A DNA stretch of 64,000 nt from a virus: IMG/VR virus record IMGVR_UViG_3300045988_141012; one strand, 5' to 3'. A model generated the notes under the pieces. It made no database searches. It worked only from the letters and a program-made list of their open reading frames with translations, and had not been told where the DNA came from. This document shows, in pieces, positions 13,001 to 15,186 of this stretch (positions within the stretch are counted from its first letter, which is position 1; every line of letters starts with the position of its first letter). The position numbers and the translations under genes were made by a program.

Positions 13001-13398
13001 CTAAGATTAAGAAGTATGGCGGTGATAAAAAGCCGGTACAGTTCTTAAAGAATGGTAATACATCAGTCAGTGTTAATGCCGATAATACAGACGAAGAAAA
13101 GGAACAAACTGCCGAAGAACGTAAAGCAGAAGAAAAAGAAAAAGAACGTCTTGGTTTCCTTGAAAGTATTTCTAAAAATTTAACCAAAGGCACATTGGAT
13201 GATGAAATCAAAGGTTATGATTATGATACTTTAAAAGGTTTAAAAGAAATGTCTGAATCTTGGGGGAAAGATGACGACCTTACTTCTGAAATCTTAAAGA
13301 GTTTTAAAGACTATGCTGAAGATTTCTCAAAATTGGACGATTGGATTGAGAATGACCTTGAAGATACTTTAAATACCTATAATGAAGACTTTTATTAA
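7075..13398 (+). CDS. Tail tape measure protein, segment 2, with embedded NlpC/P60 peptidase domain
   Basis: The ORF-track start is a TTG with no SD, and the frame is open from 7060. The hydrophobic Gly-rich segment [28 protein letters not shown] continues the motif type at the end of segment 1. Long coiled coils follow. The NlpC/P60 domain (~11440-11800) reads [28 protein letters not shown]...[16 protein letters not shown]. Confidence 0.85.
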   Translation: [2107 protein letters not shown]

Positions 13399-13900
13399 AC
13401 GAGTCAAGAACACTCGTGACTTTAGTCATGAGATGAATTGACGAGAATAGTAAGCACGTAGGGAAACTTGCGTGTAGTGGTGCTTATGGCATCCAATACT
13501 ACTTGAATTGCTGGAAATTCCTAAAGCTATTCAAACTACAACGTAATATCTTCAAAGATATAAGCGTGAATGTGACGAAAGTAGAAAAAATTGAATAGAT
13601 GGTGCAAGGTTAAATCCTAAACACTAAAATAATGGATAATCAGCAGCTAAGACCGAAAGGTAAAGTTCAACGACCATTCCTCTTGAGGGAAGTAGGGACA
13701 AGCGTCCCGAAGTGGGTAGACCCTAACGTGTAATGACGAGGGATAAGATATGGTCTGTGCTTATAGGAAACTATAAGATACCTACTGCTAAACCATAAGG
13801 CAGATAAGGATACATAGAATTAGCGACTCTATGTGAACGACAACCTCTAAAACGATTAAAGAATCTTACGGTTCTTATATATTATTTAAAACTTAATAAC
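13392..13900 (+). ncRNA. Group I intron catalytic core (intron B, IStron 5' module)
   Basis: Candidate P1 pairs GACTT (13387-91) with GAGTC (13401-05), with a U.G pair at the junction. GCTGGAAATTCCTAAAGC lies at 13510-27 and GTGACGAAAGT at 13572-82. P7 is AGACC 13718-22 / GGTCT 13752-56. The S-like element is ATAAGATATGGTCTG. P9 is CTTATAG-GAAA-CTATAAG (13760-77). Confidence 0.7.
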
Positions 13901-13947
13901 CTTTCACTTTTTAAACGGAGAATAATTAAGTGAAAGGAAGTGATATT

Positions 13948-15054
13948 ATGGCTGAAAAAGCTTATAAGTATAGAATTTATCCTAATAAGAAACAACAAGA
14001 GTTAATTCAAAAAACTTTTGGTTGTACAAGATTTGTGTATAACTATTATCTTGATAAAAGGATAAAAACGTATGAGCAAGATAAAATGACTTTTACATAC
14101 AACATGTGTTCTAAAGATTTAACCCAATTAAAGAAAGAATTGAGTTGGCTAAAAGAGGTTGATTCGGTTGGATTACAATCTTCACTTAGAGATTTAGACA
14201 TGGCATATCAGAAGTTTTTTAAAGAACATTCTGGTTATCCTAAATTCAAATCAAAGAAAAATAGACATAAGTCTTATAAGACAAAAAATACAAATAACTG
14301 TTTAGGTTTTGAAAATAAGCATATTAAACTTCCTAAACTTGGATTAGTAAAAGTAAGAGATAAACAAATTCCACAAGGACGAATTTTAAATGCCACAATA
14401 TCACAAGAATCAAATGGACAATATTACTGTTCGTTATGTTGTACAGATGTTGAATTTGTACAATACGAAAAGACAAATCAGAATATTGGTATAGATTTAG
14501 GTTTAGTAGATTTTGCAATATTATCTGATGGAAATAAAATTGACAATCCTCGATTTTATGAAAAATCAGAAAAGAAACTTGCTAAATTGCAACGAGAATT
14601 ATCAAGAAAAACAATTGGTAGTAATCGTTGGAATAAAGCAAGAGTGAAAGTTACAAAATTACAAAAGCATATTTCTAATCAACGAAATGATTTCTTACAT
14701 AAGTTAACAACAAACATTGTGAAAAATTTTGATGTTATTAGTATCGAAGATTTAGATGTTAAATCTATGAGAGAAACTGATAGCAATACAAGGAATAAAC
14801 GTGTTGGCGATGTTTCTTGGTCAGAATTTAGACGAATGCTTACATATAAATGTGAATGGTATGGAAAAACAGTATCGGTAATAGACAGATATTTTCCATC
14901 AAGTCAGATTTGTCATTGTTGTGGGCATAGAGATAGTAAGAAATCAGAAGATGTTAGAATTTGGTCTTGTCCTGCCTGTAATTCAGAATTAGATAGAGAT
15001 GTAAATGCAGCTATTAATATTTTGAATGAAGGATTAAGATTGGTAAATAATTAA
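13948..15054 (+). CDS. tnpB: TnpB (IS200/IS605 OrfB-type RNA-guided nuclease)
   Basis: AAGGAAGTGA RBS + ATG at 13948. N-terminus KAYKYRIYPNKKQQELIQKTFGCTRFVYN. RuvC-like D/E/D residues in IGIDLGL, VISIEDL and DRDVNAAINI. Zn finger CHCCGH...CPACNSELDRD. Confidence 0.9.
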   Translation: MAEKAYKYRIYPNKKQQELIQKTFGCTRFVYNYYLDKRIKTYEQDKMTFTYNMCSKDLTQLKKELSWLKEVDSVGLQSSLRDLDMAYQKFFKEHSGYPKFKSKKNRHKSYKTKNTNNCLGFENKHIKLPKLGLVKVRDKQIPQGRILNATISQESNGQYYCSLCCTDVEFVQYEKTNQNIGIDLGLVDFAILSDGNKIDNPRFYEKSEKKLAKLQRELSRKTIGSNRWNKARVKVTKLQKHISNQRNDFLHKLTTNIVKNFDVISIEDLDVKSMRETDSNTRNKRVGDVSWSEFRRMLTYKCEWYGKTVSVIDRYFPSSQICHCCGHRDSKKSEDVRIWSCPACNSELDRDVNAAINILNEGLRLVNN

Positions 15055-15186
15055 ATTTTAAATAATGTATATAAGAACCGTAGGAACTACGGGGATAGCT
15101 CGGTGATACTTAACTCGTTGGAGTTATTGACCGAGAACCCTACGACTTTAGTCGTGGGAGGTTCAGAAAAAGTATTACGAAGAACA
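15000..15186 (+). ncRNA. Putative omega RNA (scaffold in tnpB 3' end/RE; guide = flanking ~20 nt)
   Basis: Hairpins are CCGTAG/CTACGG (15078-92), CTCGGT...ACCGAG enclosing TAACTC/GAGTTA (15099-15135), and CCTACGAC/GTCGTGGG (15139-58), followed by AGGTTCAG. The 5' extent and the guide (AAAAAGTATTACGAAGAACA 15167-86) are inferred from the general TnpB paradigm. Confidence 0.5.

Follow-up and report, generated by a model that had tools for sequence, protein, structure and literature searches.

A probable IS200/IS605-type IStron in a phage tape measure gene, and the covariation of its target motif with the parts that would read it

IStrons combine a group I intron with a tnpB gene and an omega-RNA-like tail, an arrangement exemplified by CdISt1 of Clostridioides difficile, which was reportedly described by Braun in 2000. 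Here we analyze a 64,000-nucleotide (nt) stretch of virus DNA, IMG/VR record IMGVR_UViG_3300045988_141012 (hereafter the window), in which positions 13396-15166 very probably constitute a non-autonomous IS200/IS605-type IStron of group A, CdISt1-like and lying in sense orientation within a phage tape measure gene. IStrons of group A are found 3' of TTGAT, ATTAT or TTTAT and terminate in TCAG (Tourasse 2014, PMC4227781). Every testable defining feature of the group is present at this locus, which bears out an earlier proposal, made from the letters without database searches (the sequence-only reading), that a CdISt1-type IStron interrupts the tape measure frame.

In CdISt1 and CdiIStron of C. 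difficile (group A; PMC4227781, 10.1101/2023.11.20.567912), as in the window, the order of parts is ribozyme, tnpB and omega-RNA/right end, the group I core carries P7.1 and P7.2 insertions, and subterminal hairpins are found at both ends. Also shared are a T-rich pentanucleotide target that is not duplicated, a ..TCAG terminus, splice sites that coincide with the transposon ends, and a tnpA gene that is usually missing. Unlike CdISt1, the window element follows TTTAT rather than TTGAT, although TTTAT is listed for some group A members (PMC4227781), and it resides in a phage structural gene rather than in a bacterial chromosome. Its TnpB has a serine at the position of K76 in ISDra2, and there is no tnpA remnant between ribozyme and tnpB. 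ISDra2 itself (IS8301 of Deinococcus radiodurans, IS200/IS605) resembles the window element in its TnpB, which aligns over the full length with the catalytic residues and most contacts to the target- or transposon-adjacent motif (TAM) kept, in taking its guide RNA from the right end, and in inserting 3' of a pentanucleotide that doubles as the TnpB TAM. It differs in having no ribozyme, in carrying its own tnpA, and in reading TTGAT through K76.

Phage-borne IStrons are already known from C. botulinum phages, where they are of the IS607 type (PMC4227781): CbISt3 and CbISt4 of phages c-st and D-1873 belong to group B, as does CboIStron, in which splicing and guide-RNA function have been shown experimentally to share the 3' end and to be antagonistic. 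Unlike the window element, these use a serine-recombinase TnpA, GG-ending targets (TGGG), a CGG terminus and a 5' splice site after G. Group I introns with homing endonucleases in structural and DNA-metabolism genes of phages, such as those of T4 td and Twort orf142, offer a further parallel, being self-splicing introns in essential genes with a nuclease that targets intron-less alleles. However, the nuclease here would be RNA-guided (TnpB), and transposon ends would allow new sites to be occupied.

The boundaries of the element are fixed by alleles that lack it. A search of IMG/VR with the predicted junction DNA returned three phage contigs (L003, L004 and L005) reading ...AATGAAGACTTTTAT/AAAAAGTATTACGAAGAACAGG..., the slash marking the insertion point; all three contain the exact junction GACTTTTAT/AAAAAGTATT, in the context ...GACTTTTAT/AAAAAGTATTACG.... 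Around the junction, these contigs differ from the window flanks by only two to three substitutions in ~150 nt, none of them within the TAM or the 20-nt target. Since a one-base shift of either boundary breaks the match to the empty alleles, the inserted DNA is exactly 13396-15166, with no target duplication. The sequence-only reading had given 13392-15166, so its right end stands and its left end moves 4 nt further right; the comparison with IStron-free alleles that it recommended has thus yielded the empty site, with TTTAT at the insertion point. The flank TTTAT (13391-95), the terminus ..TTCAG (15162-66) and the lack of a duplication are those of a group A insertion.

At the protein level, segment 2 of the tape measure protein stops at 13396-98, where the first three bases of the element form an in-frame TAA, and segment 3 has an open frame from 15152 onward, both as previously read from the letters. 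Removal of the element fuses the two segments in frame (..NEDFY/KKYYEEQAKYNTW.., that is, ..NEDFY/KKYYEEQ..), so that, as in other group A members, the intron boundaries are the transposon boundaries and the host open reading frame (ORF) is restored. When the C-terminus of segment 2 fused to the N-terminus of segment 3 was used as a query, a 54%-identical homologue (P0005) was found that runs uninterrupted across the junction (...SEDFY EKYYAEKDKY...).

Rfam RF00028 (Intron_gpI) matches positions 13450-13777 with 68 bits (gathering score 50, E 1.4e-16) when a 2.2 kb piece is scanned. The intron escaped detection, near-identical copies included, when the whole 64 kb window or 25 kb of loci were scanned, and thus negative Rfam results on such large inputs are no evidence of absence. 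The Rfam speed filters probably fail on this intron in large inputs because of its 110-nt P5 extension. For a test of the RNA structure, 14 distinct copies were aligned from the target motif to P9, and pairs were counted on an explicit structure comprising P1, the left-end hairpin, P2, P2.1 and P3-P9 with P7.1 and P7.2, P7 being treated as a pseudoknot (Table 1). Standard pairs occupy 95.9% of the cells, with changes on both sides in 36 of the 78 pairs; in a slid control, with the 3' partners moved by 1-3 columns, 35-40% of cells are paired. P7 (13670-75 with 13752-58) is paired in 100% of cells and shows a C-G to U-A compensatory change. It replaces the P7 drawn in the sequence-only reading (13718-22 with 13752-56), which overlaps P3' and P8 and is paired in 77% of cells. 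The GAAA-capped P9 reported there was recovered as the hairpin at 13760-13777.

P1 is formed by the exon motif TTTAT and the internal guide sequence GTAAG, with 70/70 cells paired in 14/14 copies. Copies flanked by TTGAT have the guide GTCAG or, in two cases, GTTAG; the guide therefore follows the flank, and the third P1 pair is U-A, G-C or G-U. A 5' splice site after 13395, one of the alternatives listed earlier, is supported both by this covariation and by the empty-site alleles. The site preferred earlier was after 13391, with P1 formed by GACTT (13387-91) and GAGTC (13401-05) and a junction ...GAAGACUU/AAAAAG, which would add 25 codons out of frame before re-initiation. Five such pairs can be drawn in the window, with a U-G at the junction, but over the 14 copies they are paired in 38.6% of cells, the level of the slid control. 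A splice site after 13391 is also incompatible with the DNA insertion boundary and destroys the frame that the empty alleles keep, making it extremely improbable. The apparent frame problem resulted from the wrong placement of P1, and with the true 5' site after 13395 the out-of-frame product does not arise.

The loop of P1 contains a stem that encloses the left-end hairpin. This stem shows two compensatory changes between the window and copy L023 (GTCAA/TTGAC versus GCTAA/TTAGC), and TTGAT-type copies have a different stem in its place. The left-end hairpin is paired in 98.2% of cells, with compensatory changes in 3 pairs. It is of the IS200/IS605 type that TnpA recognizes on single-stranded DNA, and it is also found in intron-less IS605 relatives that carry tnpA (L060 and L064). 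As is typical of group A, there are subterminal palindromes at both ends (13413-32 and 15139-58), which here have the same TTTA loop and are supported by covariation. The sequence-only reading had set against an IStron the prospect that the tnpB flanks would match the left and right ends of an ordinary IS605 element with no ribozyme homology. Typical IS605 subterminal hairpins are indeed present, but so is the ribozyme, the two occurring together as in IStrons.

Precise deletion of the element restores one open frame at 13 other insertion sites besides that of the window, with 193 to 1,662 codons against at most 79 in the next-best frame; 12 of these 13 were placed by alignment extrapolation, and the remaining one (L006) is the same tape measure site as in the window. 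These data bear on the possibility that splicing does not occur and that segments 2 and 3 are two proteins, the first ending at the stop at 13396-98 and the second starting from GGAG-ATG at 15266, with the ribozyme homology being vestigial. Such a scenario would account for the in-frame TAA at the very start of the element and for the plausible ribosome-binding site and ATG of segment 3, and gene callers do annotate a 773-amino-acid product separately (P0002). We nonetheless regard it as very unlikely, given that every core helix is kept by compensatory changes across copies, that the 33 codons from 15167 to 15265 are conserved as coding sequence in the empty alleles and in the 54%-identical homologue, and that a single ORF appears only after exact removal at all 14 family sites, L006 and the window sharing one of them.

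A TnpB scan of IMG/VR gave 53 loci, and a scan of one genome per species gave 17, in Eubacterium, Clostridium, Mediterraneibacter hominis, Lachnospiraceae and others. The tape measure site of the window is polymorphic, being filled in five IMG/VR contigs, in the NCBI assembly L002 and in the window, and empty in three contigs. On the contig of one empty allele, L003, another locus (L008) encodes a TnpB that is 96% identical. The window in turn has an empty site in tape measure segment 1, at TTGAT 612-616/617 (TTGAT/GAAGATG...), which is filled by a 94%-identical TTGAT-type IStron in IMGVR_UViG_3300045988_143344 (L010), with exons that match exactly over 30 nt to either side. Among isolate genomes, the closest is that of the unannotated Clostridioides phage ES-S-0173-01 (CP067352.1), with a TnpB that is 59% identical. 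At 62338-66432 it has a TTGAT-type IStron (L084) with a 74%-identical ribozyme and the end ..GGGAGGTTCAG. A near-identity DNA search of public phage genomes returned short matches only.

The L002 assembly (NCBI GCA_964261755.1, a 2 Mb contig; 6599-8141 and 13327-15121) has the same IStron at the same tape measure site. There, an IS3-family element with HTH_28 and rve ORFs is nested in the P1 loop, after the equivalent of window position 13411. Downstream of tape measure segment 3 lies another, IS607-like element, which encodes a resolvase and a TnpB.

The tnpB gene lies downstream of the ribozyme on the same strand, and its ORF contains the Pfam domains OrfB_IS605, Cas12f1-like_TNB and HTH_OrfB_IS605. 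The protein aligns end to end with structures 8BF8, 8EXA and 8H1J of ISDra2 TnpB (E ~7e-92). RuvC residues D183/E267/D351 are aligned to D191/E278/D361 of ISDra2, and both CxxC pairs of the zinc finger (C322/C325/C341/C344) are kept, confirming the intact RuvC D/E/D residues and zinc finger seen earlier. The TAM-contact positions are Y51, S55, S73 (K76 in ISDra2), V74 (F77 in ISDra2), Q77, T115 and N116; S73 and V74 are changed relative to ISDra2, and the other five are kept. The ratio of nonsynonymous to synonymous substitution rates (dN/dS) is 0.12-0.29 for most relatives; for L008, where differences concentrate, it is 0.47. The gene is thus intact and under purifying selection.

A tblastn search with a Pfam-verified Y1_Tnp protein of a bacterial relative detected no tnpA in the element or in the whole 64 kb window, in agreement with the sequence-only reading. 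Only ~170 nt separate ribozyme and tnpB, so there is no room for tnpA in the element. Full-length TnpA is likewise encoded by none of the eight IStron copies of C. difficile 630. The gene marks autonomous members and is not needed for membership in group A, and members of the class usually lack it. Intron-less relatives from Clostridium sp. HCP1S3_C6 (L060) and from a Lachnospiraceae metagenome-assembled genome (L064) share the same hairpins and have a Y1 tnpA adjacent; elements like these are plausible sources of TnpA in trans. Some IStron copies, L011, L012, L013, L026 and L051 among them, are 300-370 nt longer than that of the window. In L011 the extra ORF between ribozyme and tnpB (2668-2862, minus strand) was considered as a tnpA candidate and rejected, since it encodes a 64-amino-acid Cro/C1-type helix-turn-helix protein (Pfam HTH_26).

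For the 3' end, 17 copies were aligned over their final 250 nt and 20 nt of flank. The block AAGAACCGTAGGAACTACGG...GGGAGGTTCAG is near-invariant and conservation ends abruptly after the final G, 15166, as expected if the bases that follow are a site-specific guide. The intron and the transposon both end with G15166, which is the omega G of the intron. The three tail hairpins are paired in 99.1% of cells, with compensatory changes in 8 of 26 pairs (slid controls 26-51%); the nested hairpins at 15078-15158 ending in GGTTCAG, noticed earlier from the letters, are therefore present and supported by covariation. The tail matched no Rfam family above threshold, the Ref70 hit at 15072-15180 scoring 26 bits (E 0.09) against a cut-off of 115. 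Ref70 ("Enterococcus sRNA 70") could in turn represent the right end, or the omega-RNA, of an IS605-family element of Enterococcus. From the architecture of IS605 TnpB and omega-RNA, the guide is predicted to be the 20 nt after the right end, as had been suggested. The three empty alleles carry TTTAT followed by exactly this predicted guide sequence.

A 28-bp duplex between 13864-13891 and 15056-15085, with a predicted energy of -34.8 kcal/mol (RNAduplex), loops out tnpB and brings the ribozyme core beside the 3' splice site. Comparable duplexes of -29 to -47 kcal/mol are found in other IStron copies in which the ribozyme abuts tnpB, and the values are -13 to -23 kcal/mol in the six intron-less relatives tested. 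The 3' arm of the duplex and the 5' strand of stem-loop 1 (SL1) share the stretch CCGTAGG, and thus the two would be mutually exclusive. In published work, omega-RNA folding and splicing antagonize each other in IStrons. Competition between the long-range helix and SL1 would fit that antagonism, and it may play such a role at this element.

Taken together, these features suggest the following pathway. At the DNA level, an IS605-family element inserted 3' of TTTAT without target duplication. Having no tnpA of its own, it would need Y1 TnpA in trans, perhaps from an intron-less IS605 relative that the host carries, acting on both subterminal hairpins in single-strand transposition. At the RNA level, the first ~380 nt fold as a group I ribozyme with P7.1/P7.2 insertions, GTAAG pairs with the exon TTTAT, and splicing after U13395 and G15166 would remove exactly the transposon to leave one tape measure frame, with the predicted junction ...GACUUUUAU/AAAAAGUAUU and the protein ..NEDFY-KKYYEEQ... 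The same transcript encodes the ISDra2-like TnpB and would provide, at its 3' end, the omega-RNA scaffold, with the first 16-20 nt of the downstream exon as the guide. Because the guide would be the start of the downstream exon, TnpB would cut IStron-free copies (TTTAT + AAAAAGTATTACGAAG...), and the cut alleles would then receive the element by recombinational copying. For transposition by TnpA in trans, for splicing at U13395 and G15166, for the omega-RNA with its guide, and for the cleavage of empty alleles and the copying that follows, this scheme leans on the IS605 and IStron literature.

Table 1. Coordinates of the IStron, its parts and the flanking exons in the window
Feature	Position	Strand	Details
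Upstream exon, tape measure protein segment 2	7075..13395	+	Ends ...AAT GAA GAC TTT TAT; NlpC/P60 domain; phrog_4211
TTTAT, target/transposon-adjacent motif and P1 exon strand	13391..13395	+	Seen in empty sites L003-L005; 5' splice site after U13395
Whole IStron	13396..15166	+	1,771 bp, no target-site duplication, neither end ambiguous; three IStron-free alleles and uninterrupted homologue P0005
Stem in P1 loop	13403..13442	+	GTCAA 13403-07 with TTGAC 13438-42; encloses left-end hairpin
Left-end nucleotide, 4 nt before hairpin foot	13409..13409	+	Candidate DNA guide nucleotide for TnpA
Left-end subterminal hairpin CTCGTGAC-TTTA-GTCATGAG	13413..13432	+	In P1 loop (13396-13449), 17 nt from left boundary
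Internal guide sequence GTAAG, P1 intron strand	13450..13454	+	Start of Rfam match
Ribozyme core, 5' helices	13455..13777	+	P2 13455-74; P2.1 13479-93; P3 13499-505/13713-19; P4 13509-14/13640-45
Ribozyme core, P5-P6	13455..13777	+	P5 13518-21/13634-37, long extension 13522-13633; P6 13646-66
Ribozyme core, P7 region	13455..13777	+	P7 13670-75/13752-58 (U13756 bulged); P7.1 13677-91; P7.2 13695-708
Ribozyme core, 3' helices	13455..13777	+	P8 13721-42; P9 13760-77 (GAAA loop)
Long-range duplex, 5' arm	13864..13891	+	Pairs with 15056-15064 and 15067-15085; inverted match
tnpB	13948..15054	+	368 amino acids from ATG 13948, the likeliest start; GTG 13930 in ORF list
Long-range duplex, 3' arm	15056..15085	+	Overlaps SL1 5' strand (CCGTAGG)
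Omega-RNA-like scaffold and right end	15078..15166	+	SL1 15078-92; SL2 15099-15135 (inner stem 15111-26); SL3 15139-58; terminal AGGTTCAG 15159-66
SL3, right-end subterminal hairpin CCTACGAC-TTTA-GTCGTGGG	15139..15158	+	Covariation
Predicted guide AAAAAGTATTACGAAGAACA	15167..15186	+	First downstream-exon bases; position from IS605 TnpB/omega-RNA architecture
Downstream exon, tape measure protein segment 3	15167..17587	+	Reads KKYYEEQAKYNTWQ...; in frame with segment 2 once element is removed

Across the ~38 loci where the left end could be found, the base at target position -3 covaries with three different parts of the element. The 25 loci with a TTGAT target have C or U in the ribozyme guide opposite the G, C or T as the left-end base, and the TnpB motif E-P-D-K-x-x-L-Q. 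The 11-12 loci with a TTTAT target, intron-less IS605 elements included, have A in the guide, A as the left-end base (13409 in the window) and the motif E-V-D-S-x-x-L-Q. For 13409, a position-by-position pairing in the style of IS608 was tried and gave no consistent register, so the association stands as an empirical covariation only. The Lys/Ser position of TnpB, S73 in the window, aligns with K76 of ISDra2, whose side chain, by cryo-electron microscopy, forms bidentate hydrogen bonds with the -3 G at O6 and N7 and is stacked on F77 (PMC10097598). Engineered K76S, K76A and K76C variants of ISDra2 allow editing at TTTAT, according to a passage in a 2026 review (PMC13639567) that cites Marquart 2024. 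The co-occurrence of Ser with TTTAT and the K76S engineering result lend indirect support to the view that the TAM would be the transposon target motif TTTAT itself.

Comparison of the window element with the TTGAT-type copy L008 localizes the change. Of the 58 differing positions, 22 fall in 13396-13450, the left-end module that holds the ribozyme guide and the candidate DNA guide nucleotide, and 32 fall in 14146-14345, which encodes TnpB residues ~67-133 with both TAM-contact patches. The remaining 1,500 nt contain 4 differences, the two elements being 99.7% identical outside the two blocks. Such clustering suggests that the targeting modules were exchanged by recombination, which could have gone in either direction.

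Several observations weigh against the identification of 13396-15166 as an IStron of this kind. Without tnpA, the copy is unable to move by itself. Segment 3 has its own GGAG-ATG start, which makes separate translation of the segments possible. Splicing in vivo is deduced from the structure and the restored ORFs, and omega-RNA processing is likewise a prediction. Inspection by eye showed no P10 pairing of the guide region with the downstream exon; lack of P10 is expected for the class, the choice of the 3' site then falling to other elements. Finally, L006 (IMGVR_UViG_3300029859_000303, 2465-4237) occupies the same TTTAT tape measure site with a Lys-type first TAM patch and is the only exception to the association between target and TnpB. 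It may be a natural mismatch or recombinant, in which case strict matching is not required, or it may be a chimeric metagenomic assembly.

Some of the same observations would suit a domesticated or decaying relic, in which the ribozyme still splices while TnpB and its RNA are inactive at the site and the element, no longer mobile, is fixed. The lack of tnpA, both in the window and in full-length form in the eight C. difficile 630 copies, would be expected of such a relic, as would the mismatch between the TnpB patch of L006 and its target and the IS3-family element lodged inside the same IStron in L002. However, tnpB is intact, keeps all its catalytic and zinc-finger residues and is under purifying selection, and its TAM-reading residue fits the TTTAT target. 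The site is moreover polymorphic (5 filled and 3 empty IMG/VR contigs), and the family occupies at least 14 sites, a count that includes L006 at the same tape measure site. On balance we consider a relic unlikely, and retain the assignment to a non-autonomous group A IStron.

The tape measure gene has a further interruption. Segments 1 and 2 lie on one PHROG profile, phrog_4211 (tape measure), at positions 600-937 and then 961-1734; since they are collinear, the 3.9 kb block at 3140-7074 must also interrupt a single tape measure gene. Its ORFs include a DUF3800 protein (4443-5216), 5519-6394 and, on the opposite strand, 6501-6965. Eight related phages keep both ends of the block (3140-4390 and 6461-7074) and have other cargo in place of its middle. 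A second intron was considered here and rejected: Rfam found none, and a guessed in-frame join, ATTAT(3119-23)/...TTCAG(7063-67)/, has no empty allele in IMG/VR. No homologue uninterrupted at 3140-7074 was found among 5.8 billion proteins. Elsewhere in the window, a full-length Rfam match to drum RNA (RF02958) lies at 34433-34541 on the plus strand (88.8 bits, cut-off 43).

The element class is already described, and we found no paper linking IStrons to insertion in a phage tape measure gene; what is new is the phage-population context and the natural, modular retargeting between TTGAT and TTTAT. For annotation, this means that a single gene accounts for both "tape measure fragments" (7075-13398 and 15266-17587), and that the 374-amino-acid "transposase" between them is part of an element that would remove itself. 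Phage genomes may contain more introns of this type than have been called. Gut phages carry IS605-type IStrons in abundance, beyond their occurrence in clostridial chromosomes, and one tape measure gene has been hit at two different sites in related phages.

We propose, tentatively and as something that falls a little short of probable, that the family acts as a homing element guided by RNA, which passes from one competing gut-phage genome to another by way of essential structural genes and changes its target in modular fashion. If so, three unrelated readers of a single base pair, one RNA, one DNA and one protein, would have been co-switched repeatedly in nature, and the change from K76 to Ser would be a natural instance of a substitution later found by engineering. 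The covariation at -3 is a natural experiment that shows how the candidate guide of a transposase, the guide of a ribozyme and the TAM pocket of a nuclease stay matched to one another, and it provides candidates for TnpB variants that read TTTAT in nature. Alleles with and without the element co-circulate and match perfectly in TAM and target, making TnpB-driven homing, or the exclusion of rival phages, directly measurable.

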